From NCBI RefSeq assembly GCF_964355755.1, contig NC_092677.1, positions 3,804,101-3,868,100 on the forward strand: DNA of 64,000 nt, given 5' to 3'. This DNA comes from Antedon mediterranea (lineage: Eukaryota > Animalia > Echinodermata). The position numbers and the translations under genes were made by a program. Below, one piece after another: positions 10,901-34,900 of the stretch (positions are counted from its first letter, which is position 1; each line of letters begins with the position of its first letter). The notes below the pieces were generated by a model. That model was not told where the DNA came from. It saw only the letters and a program-made list of their open reading frames with translations, and did not search any database.

Positions 10901-13900
10901 ATAGCGACACATACGACACGTCTAAAACTTTCCGTCTGAAGAACGTCAAGATGCGGAATGCAACTTTCAAAAGCGTTAAATCAAAGCTAAGAGTAAGACG
11001 CAATTTTTTTATGTATGAATCAAACCGAAAAGAGCTTTACAGACATTGAAGGGGTCAATAAGGGGTCAAGGGTGAAATATTTAGGAAATCGCACTCTAAG
11101 GTTTGGGTAATTATTACTGTATTCAGTCACAGGTATCCACATATGACATTATCTTTCCAGTATCAGGAAAATTCTGTGATACGGTATACATATGTATCAC
11201 ATGTGTCACCTGATTAACCCATGCTTTAGTATCACATGTGTTACCTGATTAACCCATGCTTAAGTATCACATGTGTCACCTGATTAACCCATGCTTTAGT
11301 ATCACATGTGTTACCTGATTAACCCATGCTTAAGTATCACATGTGTCACCTGATTAACCCATGCGTAAGTATCACATGTGTCACCTGATTAACCCATGCT
11401 TAAGTATCACATGTGTCACCTGATTAACCCATGCTTAAGTATCACATGTGTCACCTGATTAACCCATGCTTAAGTATCACATGTGTCACCTGATTAACCC
11501 ATGCTTAAGTACATGCTTCAGATGTGTATTACAGTATATTGTTAAATCAATGACCTTACCAACTAATTAGCTTCAGGTTGTGATAGCTGATGCTAAACTA
11601 ACAGACTTCACAGAATTATTTGAGTGTTAGGTAAAGAAGAAAATATCAATAACAGATTTTTTTTTATTTCATTCATACACATCCAACAGCACGTAACTCG
11701 CCAGTTACAGGATGGATAAACTATTTAATAATTGATCGTGCTAATAAACTAAGTCTTATTTGAGGCTTAGGGAGTGGAGTTAAAAAAAGTCGTGAGTTAC
11801 AAACCTGGCACTAGGTCAGGATTGAACCCTGGAACTTGGGATTGGGAGGCAAACACATCAACCACTAAGCTGCAGCTCCACCACCTTAAATGTTTACCAC
11901 ATATAATAGTGATATTTAAACTGTAAAGACAGAAAGGGGCACTCTGGTTGGTGGAACAATTTATTTGCATTTTCTTTTTCCTTGTATTCCACCATTATAT
12001 ATACAGTATGTATAAAATAGTCGAAATTGAAATTTGAAAACCTCTTTTCACTCTTTGAATAAATTTGTATAGCCTATAATTGTTAATATTGGTATGCATA
12101 AATATGTAAATCAAAAGGCAAATTACTGAAAAAATGACAATGCTGTGGATATCAGTGGCTGGATCTCAATGGAGATACAAAATAAAACAAGAACTGAAAA
12201 AATGACAATGCTGTAGATATCAGTGGCTGGATCTCAATGAAGATACAAAATGACAATGCTGTGGGTATCAGTGGCTGTATCTCATTGGAGATACAAAATA
12301 AAATAAGAACTGAAAAAATGACAATGCTGTGGATATCAGTGGCTGGATCTCAATGGAGATACAAAATAAAATAAGAACTGAAAAAATGACAATGCTGTAG
12401 ATATCAGTGGCTGGATCTCAATGGAGATACAAAATAAAATAAGCACTGAAAAAATGACAATGCTGTGGGTATCAGTGGCTGGATCTCAATGGAATAAGAA
12501 AATGAAATAAGCAAAACGATAAAGTAAAACAGCCAGAAAAATGAACACTATAGCCCTTCATCAGTACAAATGGCAATTAACATCTGTGTAAATATTAATA
12601 TTTGGGATGTTTATATTCATAAATAAATATGAACAATCCCAAATATTAATATTTGTACAGATGTTAATTGCCATCCACTTACGCACAGTATTGTCACCAA
12701 GATGTTGACGATTGAAATTTGTGACAATGTATTATAATATTTTGTAAGATTTTAAAAATATGCTTTTAAAGTATTTGGATATATTTGGTAACAAACGTAT
12801 TTCTTATTCTCAATGTTTTTAATTTTTAAATAAAGTAAGTAGTAAGTAAGTAAATTTATTGTAATTTGTAAATATATAAAAAAGTTTTACATTGAAATGA
12901 ATTGACCAGATAATTCTCAGACAAATTGACCCAAAATGTTGATATCTTAATTTAAAGAGAAAGGAGGAAGAAAAAAGAAAAGAAGAAGAAATGAAAAAGA
13001 AAAGAGAAGAGGAAGAAAGGCAGCGAAGAATTCGACGAGAACGTGGGATTGAATCGGATGAAGAAGATGAGGAAAAAGGTATATATTTATTTAATATCCT
13101 TTTTTTAACTGTTTTGTAAAAAGTAAGAACTTTTAACAAGATATATTGTCTCATTGAAAAAATAATTCTTAAAAATTTTTTTTTTAATATGTCACATGTA
13201 ATATTGTCACATAATAGTTATTCACTTTGACCAATATTTGGATCGAAAACAAAATTATTTACCTGAAAAAACTGTAATTTAAAGCAAAAAATAGTCAAAT
13301 TGGCTGCCAGCCAATGGGTTTTTGGTTGAATTTAACCATTTATTTTGTCATTTTTTTTTTTTTCGTTACGGAAGGGATTAACTTTGTTAAAACTACAAAA
13401 TAACCCATTTAAAGTCTGATTTAATTAATCTTCATTTTTCATGTTTTTGGGGGACAAATACATCTTTAAGAATATACAAATAATGAATGTTTATGAGTTG
13501 AATGGTGAGAATACAGTATTTTATTAGAGAAATTGACTGCTATATTGAATGAAACAAAGCCGAGTTAAATATAACAATTTTCAACAAATACAGAACAGTC
13601 ATTATTTGTTTTATAACACACTTACTGTCCATTATCGTCGAAGGGAATCTAGGTCATTCAAAAAGGCAGCACTCAAATTTTGAACGAGGAGTACAATAGT
13701 TATAGAGGTTAATTAAATTAGAATATTTTTTTAGCGAAAACTAATTAAAACATAAACCTGTCAAGAAAGGTATGCAGGGCAGAATAATATGATATATTTA
13801 TGTTGTTATCTGTTTTTTATTTCAGAAGAGGAAGAAGAGCAATTACCTCCTCTTTACGTACCAGACGAACCAAATTCAATTCACTGCGGGTTTTACTCTA

Positions 13901-16900
13901 CTCATGATCCAAACAAGTTTTGGGTTTCTATGGTAAATATAATAATATAATAAACATAATAATAATTCTTACCCCAGTCATTGAATCAAATACATGGACA
14001 GCTCCATAATTCCAGTAATCAGTGCAGTTGTGTTTGACCCTATAACCCTACTACGTATCCAATTATGTTACTAATGGGTATACTGATGTAATCATATTTA
14101 AAATTTGTTTTGTAGGGTAGCTACGATGCTGGATATCTGTACGAATGCGACTTTCCAGATGAGAAAAAGAATCTGCAGCTGAAGCGAGAGGATCGTGAAG
14201 ATGATATTGGGGATCCATGTCAAGCAGTTCCAGTAACTGACAGTAATGATGTCCCTATCAGGAACATCACATTCAGGTATTGACACATCTATTATGATGA
14301 CAAACAAGTGTGATGTGCCCAAATATGGTAGTGATATACCCAAATATGGTGGTGATATGACATCATCATGTCCATATATAGGTACTTCACATTTTGTTGT
14401 CACATAAAGTTTAATAGTGTAATATGATGTCAGATCTCGCGCAATTAAATATTTAATGTTGAATTCTAATTAAAACCTTTTAATTTATTCCAGTAAAAAT
14501 GGTCAGCAGGTTATATTTGGCTTTGAAGATGGTTCAATCCGAATCCAATCAATCAATCAAGATGGATTGAAATTCAAACCAAACACCTCACATGGAGACT
14601 TAACAGGTCTTGGACCTTATTGGACGTTGAATGTGCACGACAACAACTACGGTGAAGTGACCAGCGTGGCTACCAGTATGGATGACCGTTACATCTTCAC
14701 TACTGGTACCGATGGTAACTTCTTTGTCTATAGGCTGATGACGCAGGAACAGATTGAGGAAGCTAAGGCGATTGCTAAAGCTAAGATTCCATCCGCTAGG
14801 GTAAGTGATGTTTTACCTTAAGCTCTGTCTAAACTATCAAACTAGACAAAAAAGTGTGATGTTATGGTTGTTATATGACATCATCATGTACATATATGGA
14901 CACATCACATGAAGTTTGATAGTGTAGACAAGGCTTTAGAAAGAGTACAATTATTTTTGTAACTTACTTTTTACTGTGGCCCTTCAGATGAAACGTCGAG
15001 CCGATAGTCCCATACGATGCACGCTAAAGGTAAAAGAAAAGCACTGCTCGCTGCCGTGGGGCCACAGAACTTCCTCAGTTTCCAGTTAAAGTTTGAGCAT
15101 GATTATAATTACATTTTACAGTGTTCAAATTTAGTTTTTATTGCTCAAATTTAGTATTCAATTTTAGCTTTTGTAAGATTTGAATTTTATCCAGAAACTG
15201 AATTCTATTTCACTCAATTAGTTGGAACTTTATATGCCTTAAATTTATATTGTAGCATTATATGCCATATGCTTTAGTTAGTAAGTGTTGAACATCAATC
15301 ATTATGTGCAAATTTAATCTAGAATTATTAAATCTATATATGAGTTAAATTTCTTTATGGACTTTGTATGCTCTAAGTTATAGATATTGCAACATATGTT
15401 CGGTAAGAATATGTTTCAGTGAAAAGTCAAATAGAAATGTTTGAATTATCAATGTGATTGCAATGTAAATGAAATTAATTGTTTGATATTTGTTGATAGT
15501 AGAGGTTGTGCCTTATGTTCATAGCATTGAAAAGATTGTTTGAAAAGTAAAATTATTTGTTTAATAAGTTATTGTTTGGGAACAATTTTGTGTGTTAGAG
15601 CATGGATTAAAGAATAGAAATGTAGAGGCTAAGAGAATCTCTCCAAAAAAATAAAATTACCTGGTCTTTTTTGAGAAATGATTAATGGAATTCATTGATC
15701 GTCTACTGTAACATCATTTGAATGCATTCACTCCAAATCTGAGGTCATGAAAAAAGGGTGATGTGGCCAAATATCGTGTCCATATATGGAACTGTGAAAG
15801 AACCACTTAAGCTCTGTCTACACTATCAAACTTTATGTGACAAAAAATGTGATGTGCCCATATATGAACACGATGAAGTCGTATCACTACCATATTTGGA
15901 CACATCACACTTTTTTTTGTCAAACTAGTTTGATAGTTTAGATGAGTGTTACCTTTATACTTATATTGTCATTAAAATATGAATATAAACACTTATATCT
16001 ACACTATCAAAGTAGTTAACAAAAAAGTTTGATGTTCCCAAATATGGTAGTTATATGTTTCAAATATGGTAGTAATATGACATCATCATGTCCACATTTA
16101 TTTGTCAGAATTATCTTATATGCTGATATTAGAACACCTGTTGATTATCTCATGAAATCACTTAATTGGAAACATATAAATCAACGATGGGACCATAATA
16201 TTCTTATAATGACCTTTAAATGTTTAACAGGTACTGTTCCCGATTACCTAATTGATTTATGATTTTATTGATAATTATCATAATTTAAATACAAGAAGCA
16301 AATCGAAAAACACTTTAGTCTTACCAAAATGGCATAATGATTCTGGTAAAAGAACATTTCAATACCGCTCAGTCAAACTCTGGAATAATCTTTCACCAGA
16401 TATTCGCAGCTCTATAAATTCATTAACTTTGCAATCGTTTAAAAATTTGATCTAATTGGTTTTTTTCTCTTGCTTCTTGTGATATTGTAGTCTTTAAAAA
16501 CGTTTTCATAATTTTCCATTTTTATTGTTTATATTTGTAATTTGTAAGTGTTAACTGGACTTCAAGGAAGAATAATGTACAAATATTGAATGAATATCAG
16601 AATAAAGAAAGATTTCTATCTATCTATCTATAAAGTTTGATAGTGTGAGATTAACACTAGTAACTAACTAGCCTATCATGGACTAGTCGGCAAAAACATG
16701 TATGTACACCTACAGTATGTACTATCATTCACTACAGTATGTACTATCATTCTCTATTCACAGAAAGAAGATATAGAAAGGAAGGTAGATGATATTGAAA
16801 ATAAAGACCATTACAGCATTGAGGTTGAGAAGCAGAAGGCAGAACATGACAGAATGATGAAGCTTGCCGAAGAGAAGAAAATGAACGTACGAAGAACAAT

Positions 16901-19900
16901 TGCTAGACTGAGACGCCAGTTTAAGAAACTTCTGGAATCAAACGCTGACCTGCCAGAACATTTGCAGCTAGAAAGAATGGTAAAGATATTTTCTGACATT
17001 ACATTATTATTTTTCTTTTATGCATATTTCCAAGGGTAGCCGTAAGAGAGTTCAATAATAAAAATAGATAGAATTGTTTCTGCTTTTAGGAATTTGAAAT
17101 GGATCCAGAGATTAAGAAAGATATGGAACGGCAAACAGCACAGAGAATTGAACTTGTTCGTAAAGAATTGGCATGGGAATCTGATAAGCATCAGATTGCT
17201 CTAGACAAGCTGAAGAAAAGGTAATTATCAATTCAGAGTCTCAACATTTTGTACCTCAGAGCAAACTATTCAACTGTGTCGGTTCTGTTGTGATATTCTA
17301 AATGAGTCAAATCACTAATAACTGGACATCTGGCTTAGAGTATGTGCACATTAAAGAACACAGTGCATGTTGTTTGTAGGACCCCTCAGGATACAAACCT
17401 CCGGGTTTAGAGGGTTATCCTTTGCTCCTGCTCGTTTTTTGTTGTCTTTGTTCTGTTTTTGTTGTTTGTTAAGTCTGCGACTTTTGATGTATATATACGT
17501 GTATATATTTCTGTAACACTGTTATTTTTATATGAGCAAAAAATAAAAACAAACAAACAAACTGCACTGTGACTACTGTAGGTCCATGTAGGACCTACAG
17601 TAATTTGAATTTCCGCATTTGAGAATCAAATAAAACAAATGTATTTATTTATTATTTGTTTGCAGATTCAAGAATGAGCTTGAATGTGAAAGAATCACAG
17701 TGATATCAATCCAGAGTTCTCACGAGGTGTCCACATTCCGTACGTCAGAACTCTCTGAGGACTTCTACCAGTTGAAAGCAGATATGGTCAGTCGTCAAGC
17801 AACCAGAATGACTGAGAGAGGGCTGAGCAGAGATCCTACCAGAGAAGCTCTTCTACGGCAGGCCAAGAGATCAGAGAGTGAATCTGATACCATGATCGGC
17901 ATTGGGGCACAAGATCACAAGAAGACCATGGTGCTTACTGGCAGACTTGGAGAGAAAGTTGCCAATGCTTTGCAGAAAGCGGAAAGAATTAAGAAGAAGA
18001 GAGAAGCCAGAAAGGCACAGGTTGGTAATCATCATTTTTCCCTGCTCTGAGTCCGACATATTTTCATGGTTCATTAGAAACTTAAGTCAAATCTGCTAGT
18101 GCAATATCTTTAATAGGCCATAACAAAATATCACTAATAAATGTAAATTGAAATGCAATGGCCACAGAAAGAGAGAAAGTTTTACCGATTGTTTCACACT
18201 TCAACATCTCCAAATATGGTATTGATATGACATCATCATGTCCATATATGGGCACATCACATTTTGTTGTCACATAAAGTTTGATAGTGTAGAAAGAGCT
18301 TAAGGCTTTGTTCTTTTTTAAAATGATTATTTTTCTTTTCCAGTGGGTGGAACTGCATGAACACAAGCCCCCTGAAGACTATGAAGACCCAGATGACATT
18401 CGTGCCATCAAAGAAGCCCAGGAACACATGGGAGACTTCAAGTTAAAGACCGCTAAAGACTATGTAGTGCCGGAGCATCTGCGCATGAATGCACACAAGA
18501 AACTGAATCAACTGATTATCCTTAAGGAATTGGTATGTTAATCTTGTAATTTGTTGTGTATTACTGTATATTGTTTCTTTAATATTCTGTTGAAATTATA
18601 TGTATATTGTGACAGCACACATCGCTATTTCTCATAATCATTATCATTTTTATTATTTATTATATGATAAGTTTTATCAAATCATCACATGAAATGAATC
18701 TTTATTTGGAATAAAGAAGTCTTATTAGTATGAAACAACCTAAAGCTCTGTTCACACTATCAAACTTTATGTGAGAAAAAAATGTGATGTGCCCATATAT
18801 GGACATGATGATGTCATATCACTACCATATTTGGGCATATCATCTTTTTTTTGTTTGATAGTGAAGACAGAGCTTAAAGTTCAAATTTATTCTTTACAGC
18901 TACACGAACACAAATACGAATTCAACCAAAAGGTAATCGGCCTGCGAAACAAGAAAGTGCGTATGATCACCGACATCAAAGGCTATATACAAGATCTGGT
19001 TGAGCTTCAGAAGGAAATGCCGATGGAGCAGCATAAGCCACTCCCAACCTGTCCAGATCTCCACCCATGTGAAGTACCAGAGAAGTAAGAATAGTTTGGT
19101 TTTTTGATTCTGCGGATCTTTTTGTGCGATATTCACCAGTCACATGATTCTCAGTACTGTATCTGTAATTTGTCCAGTTTAATAAACATATTCTGAAATA
19201 CAGTGTTACATCTGTATCACATGTGATGCCTGTATTATATTCAGGTTAAGCTTATGGTTTATTATTCTGATATTGTCATATACAATACAGAGAACAGGTG
19301 CTAAGTAAGACATTTTCCTTAAATTTACAAGTTAATAAATATTTTTCTTAAATGGTATATTATTCATTTAATCTTTAAAGCATTTCCGAATAGCTGAATA
19401 TGGACACCACTGTCTTAGTTGATCAGGTTGTTTCGTATCCATTTTTCTATGGTTGTAATAAATTATTTTAATTGATTGAATTGATTGAAATATATATTTA
19501 TACTGGATAACCTCTTCAGTCAAAGACTGGTCTCCCAGAGGGCCCAGTTATGATCAGTGGCTGTGATGTACTAGTACACCGGGGTAACCCCCTACTCGTC
19601 TCGAAAGATGTACTAGGTTCTTTAAAGTGCACACGAGCTAGATGTGTACACTGGACCTACGGTTTTAGTCCTTATCCGAGAAGACTCGTTGTACCTCCAG
19701 AACCGGAGTGAGTAAGCCTCGAACCCCTGCCGATAATATGGCTACGTAATTACGGTTCCACTGTCTTAACCGCTCGGCCACTCACTCTCTTTAATTTTAG
19801 GAAATTTGAGTACACTAGAGAGAGCTTGTTAAAGTTCAAAGAAGAGATGGCAGTGAGAGCAGTGAATGAAATCAAGGGTATAGACAGTGGTGGGTTTGGA

Positions 19901-22900
19901 GGATTTGGTGGATTTGGTGGAGGAGCTGCACCCCCACCTCCGGAGCCAATGGTAAAGTCTTAGTTACCTTTGTCAATGTTTTCATCCTGTTTGCATATTG
20001 TGAGGATATATCAATAGTTGAAAAAAAAAAAACAACTTGTTTAAAGTTCATTTCTTTAGATAAAAAGAACTATTATTGATAAATAAAGATTCCAAAGTTT
20101 TTTCACTTAAGCAGTACTTAACTATCTTAAGAAAATTTCTTACCTTTGCCGAAAAAGTTATGTTTTCACCCTATTGTGAGGATATTTCAATATAGTTAAT
20201 ACAATTTGTAAAATGTTCAGTCCGTTATATAAAAAGAAAATTTTTGATAAATTTTCAGTTTTTCACTTAAGCACTACTTATCTATCTTAAGCAAAACTAT
20301 TGATGCGACTGCTTGCCCTGATTCCAATCATGCACCTCTGTTGAAATTCAACTCTATTTACAATTTGTTTTCCTTCTTTAGAAGCAAGAATCGGCTACTC
20401 CTACCAAAATAGGCACACCAAAGCAGATTGTTTCGTCCATGTCTGTGCGCTCAGGTGTGTCGGTTGAGAATATATCCTCTCCCGGAAAAGAACTGTCTGT
20501 GTTGGAACAGCAGCTGCTGAAAGTGAAAGAAATAAGAGTTCTATACCGGCAGGATACCATCTTGAAGAAGATTGATGAACTGATCAGAAACTTTGATGCA
20601 GAGCTTCGTATTCTCCGACATTACAAGTTCAAAGAGGACATTGACCTCAAGAATGCTGACCTTCGGTATGATGATACGATTGTTCTTTAAATGATAATTT
20701 TGACTTTTAAGCGCATAATGCATATAAAGTTTCTATGCTCTTCACATAAAAAAAAATAAAATGAAATAAGTCAAATAAGAAAGAGCAATGGTAAATGTTA
20801 GTGGCACTGCGTAAATTAGCTTACCAATCTTTAAATCTGTGATTTTTTCATATCCAAAAACAGTATCACAAACTAAGCTTCAACAGCTAGAGAACATTCT
20901 TAAATTACATTATGAGAAAAATAAGTATTAGTTGTGATCTTAAGGAACCAAATCATAATACACGTATTTACAGCTCTTGTCTGTCCTCAGTGCTCCCTTT
21001 GGCGATAGTTGTCATTTACAGCTCTTGTCTGTCCTCAGTGCTCCCTTTGGCGATAGTTGTCATTTACAGCTCTTGTCTGTCCTCAGTGCTCCCTTTGGCG
21101 ATAGTTGTCATTTACAGCTCTTGTCTGTCCTCAGTGCTCCTTTTGGCGATAGTTGTCATTTACAGCTCTTGTCTGTCCTCAGTGCTCCCTTTGGCGATAG
21201 TTGTCATTGACAGCTGTTGTCTGTCCTCAGTGCTCCCTTTGGCGATAGTTGTCATTGACAGCTCTTGTCTGTCCTCAGTGCTCCTTTTGGCGATAGTTGT
21301 CATTTACAGCTCTTGTCTGTCCTCAGTGCTCCCTTTGGCGATAGTTGTCATTTACAGCTCTTGTCTGTCCTCAGTGCTCCCTTTGGCGATAGTTGTCATT
21401 TACAGCTCTTGTCTGTCCTCAGTGCTCCCTTTGGCGATAGTTGTCATTTACAGCTCTTGTCTGTCCTCAGTGCTCCTTTTGGCGATAGTTGTCATTTACA
21501 GCTCTTGTCTGTCCTCAGTGCTCCTTTTTTATGTTTCACTGAAAGAAATAAATAAATAATATTTTTTTAATTTTTTGTAGACATGTAACATTATTCGAAG
21601 AGCTGCAACTTCTCAAAGAGTTTGAGAAAAGCGAGAATGTCCTCGCAGCGAAAGTGGAAAGCAAGGAGAACGAGAAAGAAGAAATGCAGATTAAAGTTGC
21701 AGAATGTAAAGCGAAATTAGACGCCAAGAGAAAAGACATCGATCGTCTTCATGACAAAGAGAAGGCTTTGTACGCCCAGTTTCAGGCGTCTCTTGGCGAG
21801 AACAACAAGTTTGCAGAGTTCTTGACAAAGGTGTTTAAGAAGAAAATTAAAAGAGCCAAGAAAAAAGCTCTGGCTGAGGATGGAGGTTAGTTTGAGTTAC
21901 CAAAATGGCAAAAAAAGATATGTTACTGAAATAAGAAATAATGATAAGATCAATACTCTTTAAAATAATCACTTTATTATTAATAAAAAAATGTGAATAT
22001 TAAAAGATAGCTGTAAAACTTTGAACTTTTGTTTATCACCAGCCTCTGATGATGAAAGTGAAGAAAGTTCTGACGATGATTCTGATTGGTCAAGTGAGGA
22101 AGAAGACAGTGACGAGGACGGACTAGATGATTCTGTTTGTCCACCAGGATGTGATCAGGTAAATTGAGAAGTTTGACTATTCCACTTTCCTGTGTTTTTT
22201 CTGTGTTTCTCCTGTGTTTCTGAAGCACTGATGAAGAAAGTGAATCTAGTGGGGACTATAGAAAGGACTGAAGACATTTCAAACTTTCATTTTAAAATAA
22301 TTACCTTTTTTAATATTTATTTTCAAGGCTTTGTTTGACAACACATGTGCTCTACGTGAGAAACGACTTGACTTTGAAGAGTTACTGGCTGAGGAGAAAA
22401 AGACAGCTGATGCGCTTAAGAAAGAGACGGACACTCTCAACCGCAAACAGAAGATTATTGACAATGCGCTCTCTACAGCTGAGGGTGACCTAGAGGCATT
22501 TCAAGTGTGTGGATAGTAGATATATTAACATTTAGTTATGATTCTTAAGCTCTGTCTACATTATCAAACTTTATGTGTCTAAAAAAATGTGATGTGCCCA
22601 TATATGGACATGATGATGTCATATCACTGCCATATTTGGGCATATCACTACCATATTTGGGCACATAAAGTTTGATGTAGACAGAGCTTTAGAACATTGC
22701 TCTATTATGATAAAAACAACAGCATTGATTTCAGGTGGTAAAAAAAAAATTAGGATTGATTATTATAAAAAAATGTTAAATTAAAAATTGTTGAACTTAT
22801 AAAAAATATAGAGTTAATTGAGATAAAGAGATCTTTTTTTGAAATCAGCTTGAGAAACAACAGAAGTTGAACGAGCTTGACATCGTAGTGACTCTGAAAC

Positions 22901-25900
22901 TGCACCAAGTTGAACATGTTGTCAATGGCTCCTTGCCTCAAGATCTGTCTTCAACCCTTGTGTTCACTAACAACAGCATGGTGAGGTTGCAGCGGCGTAT
23001 CACAGAGCTTAAAGAAGAGAAGACAGCACAGAGACGGCTCTATAAGTAAGATTTGTGATAGGGATCATGTCGAAACATTTTCTACTGCAGTAACTACATT
23101 TTCTACTGCAGTAATTACATTTTCTACTGCACTAACTACATTTTCTACTGCACTAACTACATTTTCTACTGCACTAACTACATTTTCTACTGCACTAACT
23201 ACATTTTCTACTGCACTAACTACATTTTCTACTGCATTAACTACATTTTCTTCTGCAGTAACTGCATTTTCTACTGCAATACTACATTTTCTCCTGCATT
23301 AACTACATTTTTTCTACTGCAGTAACCATATTTTCTACTGCAGTAACTACATTTTCTACTGCAGTAACATTTCTTCTACTGCAGTAACTAACTTTCTACA
23401 TTAATGTTTTTTAGTTTGTTTAAAAATTCATTAGGCAGTCACTGCAATTTACCCAAAAAGATGACTAAATATTGACCTATAAAATAAATATATAGTTACT
23501 GTACTGCATTAGAATAATTGTGACATGATTCCTCCGACAGTACATTCAGAGTTTGTCATCTTTTCCTATATTGATAATTATTCCTCAAAACACGCTGAAT
23601 TTACTTACCACTTTTCAACGCAATAATTGTAAAAGAAAAGAAAAAAAATGATTTATTGATGACTACTTTAATTATACAGGGAACATCGGCAGCAACATGT
23701 GCGTTTAATCAAAGAACGCAAGTTGATGGAGACACGCATCGTCGAACTTGAGGAGCAGTGCAAGGAATCCATGATCCAGAAGTTTGGATGTGTGGTTGAT
23801 CTTGAGAAAATTGAAACACTGGGCGTCAACAGAAACATTGAAGAGTTGAAAGAGAGGATTCGACAGAATGAAGTGACAAATACCAACGATTTACAGAAAT
23901 GGCAGGTTAGTGAAGGAATCATATTACAATTATTCTACTGCAGTTACTGCAGCAACTACATAAATATTCAACTCCAATAACATGATTTTAGCTTGTTTGA
24001 AAGAAAAAGTTTATAACTACAATAAATAGTAAATTCGCAGCGTATGTGGCAATTGACGTTTGTCGCTGCATAGTCCCAGATTAATATTTAAAACAAATAG
24101 TTTGACATGTCCCTTCTAAACAACCAAAGTAAAATTTTAACCATCATTAGTACTACTACTTTATATAAAAATCTTAAAACATAATTTGACATTGTTTAGG
24201 AAAAGATAGAAAGCAAAAAGGATCGAATAACGGAACTTACTAGAGAGAATACAGAGGCAATCCGACACCTAACCATGCTTCTTGGGGAGAATAAGGGATT
24301 AGAGAAGGCTCTTGACTCCAGACAAAAGACACTGGTATGTTTATGTGTGTGAAACTCTTTAACACTGATTGCTGTGGAAGGAAATCACCATTTCTAATAA
24401 TCTTCACGTTTTGCTTGTGTGAATTAATATTCTTTACTCCATGTGTGAATAAAAAGAAAAAAATGATGTTGATTATTTTAGATTTTAACGACTCAAGTTC
24501 ATAAATTCGCCATGTCATATCAGCCGAGAGTAAGAGAGATATAATATAATAGGCCTGAAAAGATTTACGTTTTTGCTCCAAACAATCACATATATACAAA
24601 GTTAACAAATTTGTTGAAATGACATAAGTGCATGTATGTTGCATGGTAGGTTTTAAGCTCTGTCTATGCTATCATACTAGTTTGACAAAAGAAGTACCCA
24701 AATATGGTAGTAATATGCTTAAATATGGTAGTGATATGACATCATCATGTCCATAAAATGTGCACACCACATTTTTTTAGTTTGATAGTGTAGACAGAAC
24801 TTTATTAAAAAGTGTGTTTTGTATATGATTATGACAATGAGAACTTTGATGATGTTTTGTTTTGTTTTATCCTTTATTCATATTTTCTATATTACATATG
24901 TAGTACTATTTTCGTTTTCACAATATTCATTTTACTTTTATTTCACTCATTATACTGTATAGTGTGTATAACATTCATTTTTAACTTCACTTTATTCCAT
25001 TCTTGTTGTTTTCTGTGCATATATTTATATTATTACAGTATGTACATAATATATGTATTTGTATGTGAGGAATCTTTCCCTACAACATTGTACCTCTGTC
25101 CATATTCACAAATTGCACTTAAGTGTAAATATTTCCCAAAAGGATGTCTCCCTGAAAAAAATACTTTTTTTCTATTGAAGTCAAGTGTCAAATTGCAAAA
25201 TGGCCTATTCAAAGTCTTTTTTTGAATGATCTTTATTTTTGATGTTTTTGGGGGACAAATACATGTTTAAATATAAAGTATTTCACTTAAGTCAATTTAC
25301 AGATTACCTTTAAGATAGTAATAGTTATACAGCATGTATGTATTTCTATTTGTTCATTTATATATTTTTACTGATACAGTAGATCCCTATTAAAGCGTGG
25401 TTCCCACTAGCGACGCAACACAAGGACGTAACGCAACGCAAGTGAATTGACCAATCACAAGCGATGGCTTATTCGCTTGTGATTTCTAAAGCGTGGTTCC
25501 CACTAGCGACGCAACACAAGGACGTAACGCAACGCAAGTGAATTGACCAATCACAAGCGATGGCTTATTCGCTTGTGATTGCTAACTGTCTATAACTTCG
25601 CTTGTCATTGGTTAAAACGCTTGCGTTGCGCTTACGTCCTTGCGTTACGTGCTAGTGGGAACCGAGCTATTAAGGGGACATTTTGTGGATTTTTAAAAGG
25701 TGTCCCCTTAATAGGGGTTTATGTTCTAGTATAATCCCTCAAATTTTAAATGTATAGTGAATGTGGTGTTTTTCATCATAATATTTTGCACTCCTAATTG
25801 AATTACTGCACCAACTGTCTTACTTGGAGAATAGCCTCACCTGGGACTACTATCGACTATAGTGATCCCATACCTCACACTCTTAATTCATTGTGTGCCG

Positions 25901-26812
25901 TGTCATTAATATCATTCATTTTCTTCCTTCATCACTTCATTGTGTGCCTAACAGAGTCTTGGACCTGCAATGGTGGTAAATATTATCATAATCTTATTAT
26001 CATTAATAGTTTTCTTCACATTAATCTGTCTTGAAATTTATATTACATTATTTTATAGTATTTAAATACTTACATAAAGAATTATAACTTTGTGAAATAA
26101 ATATGTTTGTGAATTGTAAAAATTGAATGGAAACATTTTTAACAATTATTAATTTCGACCATTATTTCTAGTATGACATTTTTAATAATCATGTCATTGT
26201 GGACAGATGATTTTTTTTATTAGTCTTCTTTAGGAGGGAAGGAATCATGCAGTGATATCACTACTTTCCACTAAGGCCCTCACAACCCCGGTCATTTTTG
26301 CATCAAACATATATGAAAACATACTCCCATAGTCTAACGTCAAACACACTGCTCCACGCGCCCACTATTTGGGACGTTCATTAACAGACCCTGTAGTGAG
26401 ATAAAAGCTGTGTGTAATTCAGACTGCAATAGGTTCCGGGTCAAATCTCAGTATTTACAAATACTTTTTTGTTTAAAAATTAGGGTGGAGAATTTCAGGG
26501 AAGTCGCAAAGCAGATTTGGAAGAAAAGCAACGACTAATACAGTTAGTTCAGGTAAGTACAAGTTAAGACAAGTAACAAAAACAAAAAAACAGAACTTAT
26601 AGATAGGTCTTTTAATGACAGAAGCTGAACTTATCTTACACGCACTTTTGTTTTAATATTTCATTTAGCTTCAAGCCCAGGAGATTGAAGCCTTGAAAGA
26701 AGAGATAAGTTTGCTGTCCCGTAAAGGTGGTCATATATTACCTCCGACCCAACCACCTATGCCGCCAACTCCACACAACAGGCAGGTTATGTCAAGCAAT
26801 GGGCCCTCATAA
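1988..26812 (+). CDS. CFAP44: Cilia- and flagella-associated protein 44 (WDR52): acidic N-terminus, WD40 repeats, C-terminal coiled coil
   Basis: Approximate exons: 1988-2018, 4256-4675, 5985-6326, 6411-7200, 7606-7768, 7851-8170, 8462-8741, 9044-9202, 9427-9574, 9849-9943, 10121-10336, 10476-10586, 10840-10992, 12958-13078, 13826-13932, 14116-14276, 14494-14800, (14988-15029), 16764-16979, 17090-17220, 17666-18020, 18344-18532, 18900-19084, 19801-19951, 20382-20665, 21581-21885, 22043-22158, 22328-22504, 22849-23045, 23680-23905, 24200-24334, 26484-26552, 26669-26812 (TAA). Diagnostic peptides include [89 protein letters not shown] and [18 protein letters not shown]. Confidence 0.95.
2128..2600. 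repeat. Low-complexity TAGGCCTA/CTAG-rich tract in CFAP44 intron 1
   Basis: Dense degenerate repeats of TAGGCC, TAGGCT and GCTAGC. They continue more weakly at 3621-4200. Confidence 0.8.
2604..3620. mobile_element. Foldback-like non-autonomous DNA transposon with ~340-bp TIRs and an 8-bp TSD
   Basis: Ends read (C/G)GGTCAGTCTAATTACCGAAAACAACC... on both strands. The inverted arms span about 2604-2960 and 3285-3620 and contain 10-bp CCGAAAACAA subrepeats. The direct repeat TTCTAGGC flanks it at 2596-2603 and 3621-3628. Confidence 0.9.
4984..5270 (+). mobile_element. tRNA-derived SINE with a Deu/Nin-like core
   Basis: A-box-like TGGCCAAGCAG and B-box-like GGTTCGAGTC are followed by the core CTCGGATAAGAACTATAAACCGTAGGTCC...TTTAAAGAACC...GAGTAGGGGGTTACCCCGGTGTAC. 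Homologous copies occur at 19470-19790, 30484-30546 and 51850-52030. Confidence 0.8.
5668..5783. mobile_element. Harbinger/PIF-like MITE family A (first of ~24 copies)
   Basis: TIR AGCTCTGTCTACACTATCAAACT with TAA/TTA flanks and internal AAATATGGTAGTGATATG subrepeats. Other copies (approximate): 7243-7378, 8193-8385, 8794-8938, 14300-14420, 14820-14937, 15809-15940, 15996-16646, 18205-18302, 18743-18875, 22547-22690, 24655-24802, 41341-41493, 41825-41995, 42583-42729, 46388-46477, 48102-48223, 49935-50056, 50180-50344, 50945-51100, 51332-51380, 53289-53449, 55031-55200, 61423-61558. Confidence 0.9.
7201..7605 (+). other. U12-type (minor spliceosome) GT-AG intron in CFAP44
   Basis: The 5' site is GTATCCTT. 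A branch-like TCCTTGAA lies at 7586-7593, 10 nt before the terminal AG, and there is no polypyrimidine tract. Splicing restores the frame KI-H-HSFGYDC. Confidence 0.8.
11194..11512. repeat. 35-bp minisatellite, ~9 copies
   Basis: Unit GTATCACATGTGTCACCTGATTAACCCATGCTTAA. Confidence 0.95.
11745..11885 (-). mobile_element. tRNA-derived SINE, second family
   Basis: The minus strand reads GGAGCTGCAGCTTAGTGG...GGGTTCAATCCTG...AACTCCACTCCCTAAGCCTCAAATAAGACTT. A related plus-strand copy lies at about 29735-29845. Confidence 0.65.
12125..12515. repeat. 68-bp tandem repeat, ~5-6 copies, derived from a dispersed repeat
   Basis: Unit ACTGAAAAAATGACAATGCTGTGGATATCAGTGGCTGGATCTCAATGGAGATACAAAATAAAATAAGA. 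Single inverted copies occur at about 33915-33985 and 47440-47535. Confidence 0.9.
12568..12675. repeat. ~108-bp imperfect palindrome (probable MITE remnant)
   Basis: ATGGCAATTAACATCTGT...AATATTAATATTTGGGAT pairs with ATCCCAAATATTAATATT...ACAGATGTTAATTGCCAT. Confidence 0.75.
16110..16630 (+). mobile_element. 3' fragment of a CR1/L2-group LINE nested in a family A MITE
   Basis: Frameshifted ORF2 C-terminus ([10 protein letters not shown]...[13 protein letters not shown] / YHNLNTRS...[16 protein letters not shown]), then a 3' UTR with AATAAA and a (CTAT)n tail. The MITE left half lies at about 15996-16100 and its right end at about 16631-16646. Confidence 0.85.
19470..19790 (-). mobile_element. 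Near full-length tRNA-derived Deu/Nin-like SINE
   Basis: The minus strand reads GAGTGAGTGGCCGAGCGGTTAAGAC (A box)...GGTTCGAGGC (B box), then the core, then a (CAAT/TCAAT)n tail. Its head abuts the 3' splice site of the exon at 19801. Confidence 0.85.
20966..21527. repeat. 48-bp minisatellite, ~11-12 copies
   Basis: Unit TTTACAGCTCTTGTCTGTCCTCAGTGCTCCCTTTGGCGATAGTTGTCA, intronic in CFAP44. Confidence 0.95.
23075..23400. repeat. 21-bp minisatellite
   Basis: Unit ACATTTTCTACTGCA(C/G)TAACT, about 15 copies. Related short TACTGCAGTAA motifs are scattered elsewhere in the window (about 778-830, 7530-7550, 23935-23960). Confidence 0.9.
25392..25670. mobile_element. Harbinger-like MITE family B with an internal 96-bp duplication, nested in a Tc1/pogo-like MITE
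   Basis: TIR AGCGTGGTTCCCACTAG...CTAGTGGGAACC. The left ~96 bp is duplicated (25392 and 25488). The host element CAGTAGATCCCTATTAA...GGGGACA...GTGTCCCCTTAATAGGGG flanks it. Other family B copies occur at about 36086-36221, 41059-41240 and 61937-62175. Confidence 0.8.
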
Positions 26813-27007
26813 AACACAACAAAATTATTAAATTTCACTAATTGTATCATATTGATTTTATTAAAATTATTTCTGTTGTCTCATTTTATTTTTAAAATGA
26901 ATTAGTTATTATTATTAGTTATAGATATAAAGTTATTATATATGATATTCTTGTTGTGTGGTACAAAATTGATATATGTTGTTTACCTGCACAAGTTGTA
27001 TTTTGAT

Positions 27008-27487
27008 TCCGTCCACATTTGATGTACACTGTACTATGCTGTTAATATTACAAGTGTTTTATACCTTGGTGAGTAACTCTCCTTCATGATTTTGTTCAAA
27101 TTTGAATTACAAATTTTTTCTATACCGTGAAATTCATGCACATTATTTCCACCTTATTCATTCGTGTGAATGATTCCGTCCAATATAATAATATTTTAAC
27201 TTTGTGTTAAAAATTGTATATATATATACGAAATAGAAATCCATGCAAATATTTACTATAATATGCTTAGTTCACTCCGTCCATAGTTCAAAACATTAGA
27301 TGTATTTGATGTCATTATATTTTAAAGATAGAATTTTACATAAACACACATTCAAAGAAAGTGTTGCATTAACAAAATATTTTGAATATATTGTGATGAA
27401 AAAGTTGTACTGTACCAACATGGAAAATTACATCAATATTTGTAAAAATCTATTTGAAAGCGCCATTCCATAATATCAATCCGTCCA
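27008..27487 (+). promoter_or_regulatory. Cluster of four miR-184 8-mer seed matches (TCCGTCCA) in the putative CFAP44 3' UTR
   Basis: TCCGTCCA at 27008-27015, 27175-27182, 27276-27283 and 27480-27487, between the stop codon (26812) and an AATAAA at about 27565. Confidence 0.65.
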
Positions 27488-28724
27488 AGGTAACATAGCA
27501 TTCTTCCAGTTTACTGATATAACACTATTCCAATATTCTGTGATGAGTGTAATGTAAATAATATAATAAATCAAGATACTACTGTATATTATAACCTAGT
27601 CATGTTCATTTGTTAAAAATTACTTTACTTAGTACAGCACTCCAAATTTTTGGTTTTTTAAATTGCTTTATAAGGCAATTATAATCTTTTTAAATACTTG
27701 GCAACACTTTTATCTTGCTTAGTATAGTACTTGCTTTGTTTGTTAGCACGATAGCATTCACAATTTTTAAGTTATCATTCTGAATTTTCGGTGTAATTAG
27801 GTAGATACTTGCAGAATATGCCTTTTGAAATTCAAGAAAATTGGTTCGCAAATAAAAAAAAATAAATATTTGTATTCTTTCATCATGGGCCGAAATATTC
27901 ACATGCGCCATCTGGCAATATTTTGCAAAGTACTTCACTCAGTTTTTGAGTTCTTTAATTTTGTTTGTTTTTGGTTATTTTTCAATCGTTAATTAAATCT
28001 GAATTGTTGGCTATAAACCTCATGGAGTCGCACAATCGACGCGACATTCATAATCGTACTTTCACTGTTGATAGATTTTTTAGAACTAATAACAACATTT
28101 CTTCAACATTTAACAGTTTTATGGGTTAGATACACAGAAGCCAAAGTGGCTTGTCTTTGTAGTCTAAACATAAAACAAAGACGGATGCAGTACATTTTGA
28201 GACAGAAAAATAAAAAAACAAATTGAGATTAAGCAAAATATTTACAACTCCATTGTGCAGTAGCACTGAAAAAAACACTAAACAGCAATTTAAATACCTG
28301 TTTCCAAATAAGTTTATTGAATATATACACAGAAACAATACTACTGTACAGTAAATTCTAATTGATGTTGTGATATTTTTTTTCATCTTTAATATCAGTG
28401 AGAAGTTAAATATGTGGACCAGTTTGCACTATATGTATACAAGCGAAATGTTATGTCAAACCTTTGTACACAATACTTAGAAAGAAGAAGAAATAGAAAG
28501 AGGCTGGATTTGAAGTCACTGTTAAGTGACATCTTCTAGTGCACGATCATGCCAGAATACTTAGTACTTGTTTACTTCAGTTACGATAAGAAGTCTTAAT
28601 GGTCAACAACTAGTCATATTTTTATGTGCAAATCAACAATTATTAGTGTGAACAAGACTCAACAGTCAAGTGAAATGTAAATCTAGAGTATGTTCAGACA
28701 GCATTTAGAAAGTTCTAAGAAGAA

Positions 28725-31700
28725 TCAGAGCACCAGCCTATCTGGATCAACCTCCTCTTGGCTGTAGTCGTGTTCATCTGGTTTTTCCTTGAGAGCATTG
28801 TCCAATTTATTCTCCTCTGCTAATGTACGGAAATGCTGAAATAAAGAAGAAAAAGATTGTGTCGTATTTTTGGAATAATACTGAACATTCAAGTAGGGTG
28901 GACTTGAGGTACGAGTGCCAGGCTAGTGATCTGAAGGTTGTGGGTTCGAGTCCTGACAAAGGTTCATAAATTCATTCATTCAGGCTTATCGCCTGACTTT
29001 ATTTACTTTAGGCCTCTGGCCCCTATTTATTAACAAAAATAAGTACAATTTACATCAGTTTTGGCAGAATTTTACAGCTTATTCAAACTAACCTGAGAGT
29101 TTTTAAACTCCGAGTAAAGTGTGAAGAGAACATGCAAAGCTTGAGTTTTACTCTGGTAGATTGGGATATCAAGAATGGCACAGATCATCTCCACATACTG
29201 GTCTAGGGTGCAGTCAAGTTCAGCTGTTGGTAGTCCAACCTTATTCAGAAGCTCCTCAAATTCTTCTGGCCATTCCTGCATCAAGGCTTCAATTTCTGGC
29301 ATTGTTCTATAGAGAGAAAAACATGGTGTATTGAGAAAACAGTTTGTTTAAGGTATAGCCCTCAGTCAGAAAATTTATACTTTTCGAGTCTTTGTTCTTC
29401 GAGGAGAAAGAGCTAGATTGTCAGTTTATCCATGTAAGCTTGGCACGAATTAGACACTTACTTATTGTAATGTACAGTAGGTGGTGGCTTAGACCTATGC
29501 AAGTCACTAATACTTTCTATCCAGTTTTTTATTTGTTTAGGATTCTTGTCCGCGTTCTCTATACTCCTGACTTGCATCGTCTTGGATGTAGTCTGCTTGG
29601 AGATTGCACGTAGCTGCAGGTCAAGGACCGTGGGGTCAGACTGCTTGGCGCATGGTTCATCGAGCACTGATAGACCTAATGTGTCTGGCTTGTTGTCTGG
29701 CCTTGGGATCTGTAAGGACAGAGAGAAAAAGAATTGTGGAGTTGTGGCTATGATGCTTGGCTATCAATGCAAGGGTCCTGGGTTCAAGTCCTGTCATATG
29801 TCAGATTTTTTGCAACTCCACTCCCAAAGACTTATAATAAGACTTTGTTTAAGTAGTTGTGTTTATGTTTTTCTTGTGAACGTGATTGCAACCTTTACAG
29901 AGGATAGTGAATGAATTCGGATCGAAAGTTTTGTCTATTTGGTGCTATTATCGAGTTGGTTGGTGACGTGCGTTGGAATGTAAATTAGTTAAGCTAACCC
30001 AATCAATAACCGATTGTCAAACAGGACATTAAAAATAAATGAAAAAACTTGCCTTAATAAAAGCATCTATGTCTCCAACTGCTGGTATGTAGTCTGGGAT
30101 AAATGGCCTCAACTTGTGATCTAACTCAATAGTCTGAGGGGTGTATCGTGTAATGTATTGGAATAGATCTTTAATCTCTTCACTCACAGGCAGAGTGTCA
30201 TACTCGGCTGGGTCGTAAGCGCTATAAAACAATTTTAGGAGACCAAATAAAGCATGGTACAAATTCAAAATATACAGGCTTTTAAAAGATAAAAATATTG
30301 TTAATTTGTACATTTTAGATAAAGAAAATACTACTGATAAAAATCAAAAGTAATTTTAAACCCTTTAAGATGTAATTCATCTGTGTGTAATGAAAGCTAT
30401 AGAACGAAACACAAACCAGTTGATCTGTGGCCATTTCTCTAATGTAATTTATAGATTTGTTTTGTTTTGTTGTTGTTTTTATAGTTATGATCAGTGGCTG
30501 TGAGTGACAGTGGCTGTGTGATGTACTAGTACACAGGGGTAACCCCGCTTTGTAAGCTTAATTTAAACAAATGATCACCCTTCTAATGCCACATGGGGGT
30601 CATCGCCATCTCCATCAGAAGAATCTGATCCAGATTCATCATCATCATCATCATCTTCTTCTTCTTCTTCATCGTCATCATCATCATCGTCTTCCGAAAC
30701 TTGCCGTTGCTTTGGTGGTACCGTCTGCCTTGGCGGGTTTAAAGCCTGCAAACAAAACATGAAATACAAATAAATTAATATCATTTTTGCGATGTTATAC
30801 TTTTTAAATGATTGACCACACAAGAGGTTTTAGTTCGTCTACTCTACCTTCTTTGTCATAACCTCGTCCTCAAAGTCATCATCGCTGTTGTCCGTCATGC
30901 TCGTGCTATTTCCTCGCAAACCAATCCCAGCTTTATTCAGAAAGAGAAGAATAATTAATCAATTAAAAAGAATTTTAAATATATTTGTATTAACTATTAT
31001 AATAAATTTCTGTTTATCTACAAAAGAAGGGTTGATAATAAATAAAAGGTGTAAAGATATGATTAATTTTATCTAGGTTTAGCCTAGGCCTATTATACCT
31101 GTACCTGGGAAGCCTGCAGGAACTCGTGGGCTAGGAGTGTAATTTGAAGCAACCTCTTCTGCGTCCGGCACTTCTAGAGACTCGTCGTATGGTTGGTTAG
31201 TTACGATCTTTGCCTGTAAAAATAACAAAAGCAAATAATTATCAGATACTGTATATCATAACATAGGCTATAATAATAGAATACAGTAGCATTAGTTTTA
31301 GTATTATTATTATTATTGATAATGCCGGTACATACTGAAATAATATATATAATAATAAAAATCCAATCAATATTAATTATTATGTTTGCACATTTACAAT
31401 GCGTCCAAAGTGTGTGGGCAGACGTAGGCCTTTTTAAAAATTACCATCATCTTTAGAGGCTGGTAATAGCATAATAGAGGCATCATCATATCACACTTAG
31501 GCCTATTCCCCGGGGTGCCTTCCCCGGCAGTGTCTTTTTAAATCAAAAGTCAATCAATGATTATGACAATGAGGTGAGAGCGTCCCACACACTCTTCCTA
31601 GCAACCGCGAATCTTACTTGTTTTTTCAACAACTAAAGCCATTTCTTATCATTTTTTGCAGCCCCAAATCCACTTTAAATACTACTCTAATAGCTACATG

Positions 31701-31785
31701 TACTTTTGTTTAGTTATAATACTTATAAATGATTTAAAAACTAGAAATTTACTCCTCCGTTTTCGTCTTCAGAATCATCCGCCAT
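28725..31785 (-). CDS. IFT46: Intraflagellar transport protein 46 (IFT-B1 core subunit)
   Basis: Exons 31785-31753, 31213-31105, 30930-30848, 30745-30579, 30221-30053, 29709-29462, 29306-29093 and 28835-28725 join in frame. The product reads MADDSEDENG...NQPYDESLEV...acidic tract...LEGAYDPAEYDTLPVSEEIKDLFQYITRYTPQTIELDHKLRPFIPDYIPAVGDIDAFIKIPRPD...LDEPCAKQSDPTVL...LMQEWPEEFEELL...LHVLFTLYSEFKNSQHF. Confidence 0.97.
29710..30052 (-). other. Non-canonical GC-AG intron in IFT46
   Basis: The donor reads AAG|GCAAGT and the acceptor CCTTACAG|ATC. This join gives the conserved peptide DAFIK-IPRPD. Confidence 0.85.
31592..31605 (-). promoter_or_regulatory. RFX X-box-like motif in IFT46 intron 1
   Basis: GTTGCTAGGAAGAG on the minus strand, with a strong GTTGCTAGG half-site, about 180 bp downstream of the IFT46 ATG. 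Confidence 0.5.
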
Positions 31786-31974
31786 TTGGCCATCGCAGGT
31801 ATGTTGATTATTAATAGAGGGCTCACTTCATTCAAATATAATGAGGGCAGTATTGATAAATAATGAGGTGATTTTTTCCCATCAGCAAATCAACATCATT
31901 ATTACAATCTTGAGTTCTCAAAAATGTAAATAAAGGTCATTTTTAGTTTTCATTTGTTGCATATTAATTCTGGA
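31786..31974. promoter_or_regulatory. Putative bidirectional promoter between IFT46 and GRAMD1
   Basis: Only 189 bp separate the divergent ATGs at 31785 (-) and 31975 (+). The interval contains repeated (T)AAT(A)GAGG(G/T) motifs. Confidence 0.65.
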
Positions 31975-34900
31975 ATGGCCCAGAAGCCCCAACGGTCAAT
32001 GCTTTCAAGCCAGAGGACACTTTTAGAACTTGCTGAGGGTAAAGAATCACCAACGACAGGTAATCGCGAAGGCCGACCGACTTCTCTTCCTTCACCACTT
32101 GCAGGTAGTTTGAGCAGCGGCGGAAAAGCCGATGAATCGCCTACTACTGGGACTGCGGCGGAGAGAGAGCCTGGATTGACCACATCATCACCACCGGGTT
32201 CTTTGAATATGGACAATCTTGGGAAGACTTCAAAAGAAAATGATCATCCATCGATGCGGAGAAATGCTAGTGCACCAATTACTTTATCTGGTGTAGGCCT
32301 AGGTGGAACAAATGGAGATTCACACAGCCTTACCAGGTAAGACAAATATTAATTTATAAATTTTAATATTAATATTATTATACTTATTTGACCTAGGTCT
32401 ACCTCTAGCTCAGGTAGGCCTAGCAAGTAGGTAATAAACATACCTTTTTTTTTAGTTTTTCATGTGATTATACTGGCAACCTTTATTTTTTTGTTGCAAA
32501 TTATAAAAATCACTGATCAATAAATAATGCACTTGTCAATTGTATGACCCACTATACGACCCCCGGGAGAGGTGCGTCATTTGTCCGATGTGCGTCATAC
32601 TTTTGAATACCATGACGCACCCGTGCGTCAATTATTTTTACTGTTTTTTAAAGAGGATACTGTAATCCCCAAGGGCCAATGTTTTCATGAATGGTGGATG
32701 ATAAAGGTGATAATATATATTATTGATGTATTTTTAATGTTATGTATTGAGATGCCAAATAAATGTAAGAAAGAAAAGAAAAAGTGATGGATATTGACAC
32801 GCCATTTTTCATTGATGTGACGTACCATCTAGGTTTTTTACACACCCCTGCATTAATAATACTTGTAAATGACGCACCTCTTCCGGGGGGTTGTATAGTG
32901 GGTCATACAATTGACAAGTGCATAACCCTAAAATAATCTCAGTTGTAATATAAGAGAGATCAGCGAGAGAGAGAGAAATGCGAGAAAGAGGGATCAGCGA
33001 GTGAGAGAGAGAGATTTTTGTAGTTTTGTAAAAGTAGGTAAATTTTGATTGTATTATTGTAATTTGTTCTCTAAATATTGTAGTTCAAGTAAAATAAATT
33101 CAAAAGTGTACATTCAATAAAAACATTATAGTGTTTTTTTAAAAATTCTATTTGAAATAAATTATGATAAAATACATTGTCAATTATATAATTGTTAAAA
33201 TGACCACCACACCTGCATATAATGTACCGGTAGCATATGGCTTTCATTGTGAGTTTTAATGGTATGTTATTTAAATACAATTTCTGATTATTAATTACTG
33301 TATATCAGGTGATCAGATTATTTCTGCAGGTTAGATGTTTTGATAAAGAATGATGATATGTTATTATATTACAGTTTATGATGTATGCTATACTTAATAT
33401 TAATGCAGTTATATTATCATTATTATAGTTAAACATTAAGATTTTAACTACGGACAGTAAAAAAGACATTTAAAATTCACAATTTAACAATAACATTTGT
33501 AATGTTAAATTGTGAATTTTCTTTTTAATAACATACAAATGCACCAACTTCCTTCTGTTTTTAACTTGTGCCTGCAGTCCGGTTTCCTTTTCTTTTTTTT
33601 TTATTCATATAACCATCCTTATAACTTACTCATAAGTAGGAATAAGTACAAATTTATGTTTGCTGCCCTCTGTAGTATGCATTTTGTTGTACTGTAGGTG
33701 ATGAGAGTCAGCAACGAGACATAAAATATTGTTAGTATCTAAAAAATTAATGATCTTGTGAAAAACCATCATGATAAAAAACATTTTCTTAATAAAATAA
33801 TAGAGTACTGTTAAAAAAAAATTAATTATAATTAATATGAAATGAATACTGTTTTGGTAATTTATTTAAGTTCTGCTAATTTTTCTGGCTGTTTTACTTT
33901 TATTATCATTTTTATTTAGCATTTTGCTTATTTCATTCCAATCTTCATTGAGATCCAGCCACTGATACCCACAGTCATTTTCTTTTGAATTTAATTAATT
34001 AATGAAGATATTATTTGTTATTTCTTTACCTTGTTTTTTATTTATTAGAAATAACATGAAGCATTATTATTCTATTGCAATAACTACATTTTCTGAACCC
34101 TTTTAACCTATTTATGTAATTAAAATCTTTTTTGGGGGTAATCCTACACCCCTGTTTATTGCAGTGACTGCCTGATAAATTTCAACATTGATTTAAACAA
34201 ACTAGTCATTCATTATTGCAATAACAATTATTGAACAGTACTGCAGTCGTCTGTAGTAAAATTGTCACCTAATCCCTAATAACCTAATACTGTAGTGATA
34301 TACTAATAATTGCCTCAACCAGTGAAGAGAGAAATTAAACAGTGCACACAATTCCACTATACGCTACCTATTGTTTTCTTTTTGACACCGTCATTGTTTT
34401 TAACAAGAATAGAACCCATCAATAGGAATTTTCACCAAACAGTTTAATAAGTGCATTTAGCATCCTGTTGGCTGCTATGGAGACAAAAGCTTTGATCTGA
34501 TTGGCTAGTTGTTTTGTGTCATTCATTCATAGAAAATAAGATTACTTAATCGCGGCTAAGATGATGACTTGCAGTACCGGTGTATTATGAAGTACCAGTA
34601 GTCACTGGTGACCAGCAATGCAGATTTTAAATTCTTATAGGACTACGTTTTTAAAGTTGACTGCCAGAGTTTTTTTTTTTACCAAAAGAAGCGCGTTTGT
34701 TAATCTACCTACCACCAGGAAGCTTTCGACGTTGCTGCAAGCATTGTAACACAGGCCGCCACACAAAGACTGTCCGTTCTATTTTCTGCATCATCGGGTT
34801 TTTTTCTACTGGAAACCAGGTTTGAGATTTGTATAGGAGAAATTGATTCCATAGATTATCTAATACCGTAATAATATTCAGCTTATGTAATAATGTAGCC

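Follow-up and report, generated by a model that had tools for sequence, protein, structure and literature searches.

Candidate miR-184 sites in the 3' UTR of a crinoid CFAP44 gene and recurrence of the site core behind CFAP44 in other animals

CFAP44, its 3' UTR and the octamers

The window, that is the whole stretch of 64,000 nt that was analysed, holds on its plus strand the gene of CFAP44 (also named WDR52), an axonemal protein of motile cilia. Coding exons aligning to relatives span 7076-26812 in a tblastn exon map built with Ptychodera and Tubulanus CFAP44, whereby the true start lies further upstream, and the last coding exon comprises 26669-26812 with its TAA stop codon at 26810-26812. 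The identity given to the gene in the preliminary description is borne out by this map and by the exon at 21582-21878, which shares 92% identity with CFAP44 of Anneissia japonica (next best Ptychodera, 76%); in a tree the encoded protein clusters with those of sea urchin and acorn worm. The 3' UTR was assigned to 26813-27590, a tail of 778 nt with a GC content of 25%, which is covered by contigs up to 27530 and probably ends at about 27590, as judged from an AATAAA at 27565-27570, which probably serves as poly(A) signal for the long tail. Two proximal ATTAAA hexamers on the same strand (26827 and 26860, together 26827-26865) are putative poly(A) signals, the first as previously described and the second one nucleotide before the position formerly given (26861), and either might be used for alternative polyadenylation. 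On the minus strand the convergent IFT46 gene follows (28725-31213, Pfam PF12317, stop codon 28725-28727). Two ciliary genes stand tail to tail across 26812-28725, and the interval that separates them contains a dispersed repeat (about 27712-28200).

Five sequencing runs cover the region, none of them recorded as RNA, and run X1 was taken as RNA from its spliced joints: it contains six IFT46 joints, five of them with CT..AC ends, and thus spliced mRNA. One X1 contig begins at the border of the last CFAP44 exon (26667), reaches 27335 and spans octamers 1-3 (numbered in the order given below), and a second (27306-27530) spans the fourth, which agrees with the proposed location of all four in the 3' UTR, whereby X1 represents one study and its contigs carry neither strand nor RNA-end information. 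Its cover is absent at 27548-27711, its depth in the bin 26564-26727 comes from the last-exon contig alone, and uncovered parts of X1 were not counted as evidence. In the DNA runs, which derive from one sample, a single contig crosses 26400-27741 (to 27713 in X4), and over the octamers similar contigs do not pile up as they do at the repeats of 27712-28203. None of the 12 substitutions listed for X1 in 26813-27530 falls inside an octamer (21 gap letters occur besides), a count which is uninformative on constraint, as only about 0.5 such changes would be expected by a hand estimate. At 27306-27336 the X1 contigs carry 89 and 78 letters that do not fit the window, which suggests an insertion allele between octamers 3 and 4.

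Past the CFAP44 stop codon, the octamer TCCGTCCA occurs four times on the plus strand (27008-27015, 27175-27182, 27276-27283 and 27480-27487), exactly where it had been reported, with starts 101-204 nt apart and 196-668 nt past the stop. All four lie upstream of the AATAAA at 27565, again as described. Six copies exist in the whole window on both strands, as compared to a mean of 0.45 in 100 shuffles, none of which held six. Both further copies are antisense to open reading frames; the one at 61291 (+) had been noticed before, whereas the one at 46121-46128 (-), residing antisense in a GRAM-domain exon, had been overlooked. A Pfam search of one exon at the 61291 gene returned no match. Seven Markov models predict 0.002-0.004 octamer copies in the 778-nt tail and assign at least four copies a probability of 3e-13 to 1.5e-11, which becomes 2e-8 to 1e-6 once all 65,536 8-mers are corrected for. 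The tail contains eight CpGs, four of which lie inside octamers. The flanks are dissimilar (mean identity 0.36) and a search for tandem repeats gave none covering the four octamers, in accord with the former statement that they did not arise by tandem duplication. When windows of 800 nt were slid along the sequence, the only other words that are not AT-rich and occur at least four times with dissimilar flanks were a TAGGCCTA patch at about 1850-2580 and a TCA run at about 30640.

Sea urchin, sea star and acorn worm have the same miR-184 sequence (PMC3247247); it was used here, and crinoids are therefore bracketed by the groups sharing it. At all four sites TCCGTCCA is the reverse complement of miR-184 nt 1-8, and the exact 8mers previously noted are thereby confirmed, since a canonical 8mer is reported to combine a match to nt 2-8 with an A at t1 (PMC9880601). 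The sites reside in AU-rich and accessible context, with flank AU contents of 0.67, 0.78, 0.75 and 0.65 for sites 1-4, which are more open than 81%, 99%, 93% and 79%, respectively, of the 8-nt windows of the same tail; the AU content is not specific to the sites, as the whole tail is 75% AU. Pairing beyond the seed, rated by duplex energy, was equalled or surpassed by random flanks at frequencies of 0.31, 0.12, 0.13 and 0.53 (sites 1-4), so that extended pairing, which had been considered at sites 2 and 3, was dismissed. The special pairing formerly ascribed to site 3 involves nt 10-15 behind a bulge, but 13% of random flanks equal it, and the X1 allele alters 27270, which lies inside this pairing. 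The extended pairing of the 3' half that defines supplementary sites and degradation triggers is absent at all four crinoid sites. No 7mers for miR-34, -92, -29 or -200 were found in the crinoid CFAP44 tail and none for miR-184 in the IFT46 tail, and an Rfam search of the 64,000-nt window gave no match, so that no miR-184 gene was found there.

CFAP44 tails of other animals

Metagenome contigs were scanned with an alignment of the CFAP44 C-terminus, whereby 252 pattern matches condensed into 51 loci. Two of these had no stop codon in reach and were excluded, and the remaining 49 formed 25 clusters of mutually non-alignable tails, from which 27 representatives were drawn (the longest member per cluster, except that the coral and 'rotifer-like' clusters contributed two sequences each, the latter name, for L031/L035, being a guess). 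Trees were calculated with FastTree, and for loci of less than 150 residues the placement relied on identity only. TCCGTCC, the match to miR-184 nt 2-8, was found within 600 nt past the stop in six of the 27 tails, where 0.26 would be expected from background counts taken from the window and the surveyed loci (P 1.3e-7). With the crinoid excluded and without any sorting by taxon, it ranks first of all 7-mers (Bonferroni 2e-3), and of 59 permuted control words with one CpG, 48 are absent from all tails and 11 are present in a single one. The limit of 600 nt was set after the matches were seen; at 300 nt two tails (P 7.7e-3) and at 4000 nt six tails (P 8e-5) have the word. Counted as lineages, the six matches amount to 3 of 13, with P 1.4e-3 at 600 nt and 4.7e-3 at 1000 nt. 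In the first 600 nt of the 14 loci initially classed as bilaterian no antisense copy was found, and the other sequence of the same loci holds two copies in 104 kb. The conservation in orthologous tails that the preliminary description wished to see checked is thus detectable for the 7mer-m8 above control words, though in a patchy manner.

Two of the six tails are bryozoan, with an 8mer plus a 6mer in L001 (89% identical to Watersipora) and two 8mers in L015, two belong to a further spiralian clade (L018 with an 8mer, L022 with a 7mer-m8), and two come from venerid-type bivalves of 97-98% identity to Mactra (L024 with an 8mer, L040 with a 7mer-m8). L001 is an intronless contig with an A run at its end and the site inside, and its two seed matches align with those of L015 though the tails are only 53% identical. 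The sites of the two bivalves do not align with each other, nor do those of L018 and L022. In both bivalve loci an AATAAA comes before the site, hence these sites may fall outside the main mRNA. Considering the four crinoid sites together with the seven of the other animals, the base 3' of the 7mer is A in nine and G in two, and the base 5' of it is T in seven, C in two and A in two; as far as can be read from these letters, the edge pattern is that of canonical 8mer sites. Extra pairing reached 0.05 at one of the seven sites outside the crinoid.

TCCGTCC is missing from 21 of the 27 tails, among them two of four bryozoans and the tunicate loci, which are short or have an early AATAAA. Echinoderm-like L037, which has the last exon most similar to the crinoid's (96% over 37 residues, same last intron position), lacks a site in 956 nt downstream. 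No locus outside the 27 representatives carries a site, whereby L014 and L041 end short of the site position in their twins. None of the five cnidarian tails has a site, as compared to six of the 22 others, a difference which is not significant (Fisher P 0.25); cnidarians and bilaterians are stated to have only miR-100 in common (PMC7935066). A contrast of bilaterians with non-bilaterians (6 of 14) was superseded by the unsorted count, and the classification of L020, L025, L027 and L043 as sponge-like was given up, since the homolog search yielded no name and the nearest longer protein was found among spiralians. In L013, a bryozoan tail without a perfect site, TCTGTCCA lies 138 nt past the stop and differs from the 8mer by one C-to-T change at the CpG, hence by its letters it is possibly a decayed miR-184 site. 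No miR-34 7mer was found in 26 other CFAP44 tails.

The second and third 7-mers of the survey were CTGTGAT (10 of 27 tails) and TGTGATA (11 of 27), which we take to resemble seed matches of the K-box/miR-2 family. Within the first 600 nt they occur in L001, L015, L017, L018, L022, L024, L027, L040, L043 and L049; CTGTGAT is likewise present in the crinoid tail (27538-27544, +) and TGTGATA in L037. The miR-2 family arose in protostomes (PMC3384581).

Readings of the sites and a possible role of miR-184

The four octamers are probably working miR-184 target sites in the CFAP44 tail, as judged from their match, number and recurrence in sequence. Repression by miRNAs is of the GW182/CCR4-NOT type, and according to general miRNA biology miR-184-loaded Argonaute would bind the sites, whereby CFAP44 translation and mRNA level would be lowered. 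Cooperative miRNA sites are spaced by about 8-40 nt, hence the crinoid sites, with starts 101-204 nt apart, would act independently and not cooperatively.

Any element of a 3' UTR might recur past the stop codon, and the motif could thus be a conserved element for an RNA-binding protein or a DNA-binding factor with an incidental miR-184 match. However, the conserved word reaches just as far as the nt 2-8 match and is followed by A in nine of 11 sites, and the words ranking next are of the seed-match type as well (K-box/miR-2); as the word is found on the sense strand only, a DNA element is disfavoured, and this explanation is considered improbable. Remnants of a dispersed or tandem repeat, read-through from IFT46 on the minus strand or mere chance could also have produced the octamers; here it counts in favour that contigs give no strand, and that TTTATT at 26857 and 26885 could terminate a long IFT46 tail. 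Against them stand the dissimilar flanks and the one DNA contig without pile-up, in line with the earlier opinion that no repeat is involved, the X1 contig, which continues through the last CFAP44 exon as far as the acceptor, and the recurrence in other phyla on the CFAP44 sense strand, which leaves very little room for this group of explanations. Four strong sites in less than 500 nt would furthermore suit a tail serving as sink or degradation trigger of miR-184 instead of a repressed target, as had been proposed alternatively. Yet outside the seed none of the crinoid sites pairs better than chance, hence supplementary pairing, sink and degradation trigger alike lose their basis, and adult urchin and sea cucumber samples contain miR-184 as one of their most abundant miRNAs, which four seed-only sites could hardly titrate; a sink is regarded as scarcely credible. 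In particular, one urchin study reported miR-184 as the conserved miRNA of highest abundance, and in tube foot of sea cucumber it took third place (PMC3048847, PMC4221132), but northern blots gave hardly any miR-184 signal in urchin embryos and none in sea star (PMC3247247).

The remaining alternative concerns history only and is compatible with working miR-184 sites at this locus: crinoids and several spiralian lineages may each have acquired real sites on their own, without any ancestral link. The patchy distribution over six of 27 tails, the lack of positional alignment beyond bryozoans and the absence of a site in L037 speak for it, but gain in four lineages would still require shared selection on CFAP44, and TCCGTCC outranks all other 7-mers. 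The tails of different phyla are not alignable, thus positional mismatch between them is expected under both histories. Independent gain is accordingly a reasonable possibility, albeit not the favoured one, while an old target with turnover of its sites, present in one deuterostome and three spiralian lineages, is held at about even weight, the other option being repeated recruitment.

With respect to the role of the four sites as miR-184 targets, analogy points, as the most likely option, to an axonemal mRNA that would be kept low in miR-184-rich cells without motile cilia, a proposal for which we see roughly equal grounds for and against. A second, unlikely role would be to hold back translation of CFAP44 in male germ cells up to the time of flagellum assembly. 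The pharyngeal organs of amphioxus are ciliated. Amphioxus miR-184 is reported to be expressed broadly and to reach these organs (PMC3145563), hence its strict exclusion from ciliated cells is not assured, and such broad expression sharply fits neither exclusion nor timing in germ cells. Mutual exclusion was described for Drosophila, where miR-184 targets Nrx-IV, Mcr and Gli of the pleated septate junction and is absent from the tissues possessing these junctions (PMC12677480). Both cases share the miRNA, the site core and target mRNAs encoding structural proteins, in flies with the miRNA absent where the structure is built; unlike the Drosophila case, the target considered here is axonemal, spans phyla instead of flies and is known from sequence. 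In mouse, miR-184 is reported from spermatogonia to round spermatids with Ncor2 as target, i.e. in cells later building a flagellum; the abstract of that report mentions no CFAP44 link (PMC3227627), and the present survey comprises no vertebrate CFAP44 tails.

miR-34/449 promote ciliation from within the ciliated cells of vertebrates. Likewise a miRNA would here be tied to motile cilia, yet, unlike miR-34/449, miR-184 would repress an axoneme component. Compared to canonical bilaterian 8mer sites, which show the same match to nt 2-8 with A at t1, AU-rich open context and several copies, site type and mechanism are ordinary; the unusual part is the recurrence across phyla, the CFAP44 word being found in a deuterostome and three spiralian lineages, since bilaterian miRNA targets were described as largely not conserved (PMC7935066). 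The top-ranked seed match behind one axonemal gene in bryozoans, bivalves and a further spiralian clade, together with four copies in a crinoid, constitutes a candidate cross-phylum target. Such targets are rare, and the CFAP44 pair is directly testable in ciliated larvae of urchin, bivalve or annelid. In the open-access literature searched, no link between miR-184 and CFAP44/WDR52 was found, although target-prediction tables, supplements and subscription journals may list the pair, and among the matches listed none connected miR-184 to FoxJ1, ciliogenesis or cilia. The publications naming both miR-184 and CFAP44/WDR52 mention the two in tables that have no relation to each other, and in some of these publications most 'miR-184' matches are miR-1843.

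The question raised is whether miR-184 shapes where and when motile cilia are built. Rather tentatively, miR-184 might already have restrained the motile-cilium programme in the bilaterian ancestor; it would have targeted CFAP44 since before the protostome-deuterostome split with turnover of the sites, and would have other cilium genes such as FoxJ1 as targets too. If true, this would add a rare pair of miRNA and target across phyla, and a brake on the whole programme would provide a shared function for the deeply conserved miR-184, for which none is agreed.

Further features of the window

miR-184 sites in the convergent pair CFAP44 and IFT46 are confined to CFAP44. At 58284-58907 an open frame of 208 codons resembles, by eye, the end of a LINE reverse transcriptase; Pfam gave no match. 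The palindromic words TAGGCCTA/CTAGCTAG are dense at 1850-2620, with 18 matches in 2000-2999, and form smaller patches at 31000-32400, whereby these patches lie near the likely 5' ends of two divergent pairs, sulfotransferase/CFAP44 and IFT46/GRAM-domain gene. A MITE-like element with inverted ends is present at 25391-25670 and at about 41057-41240, and its first copy contains an internal tandem duplication of 96 nt.
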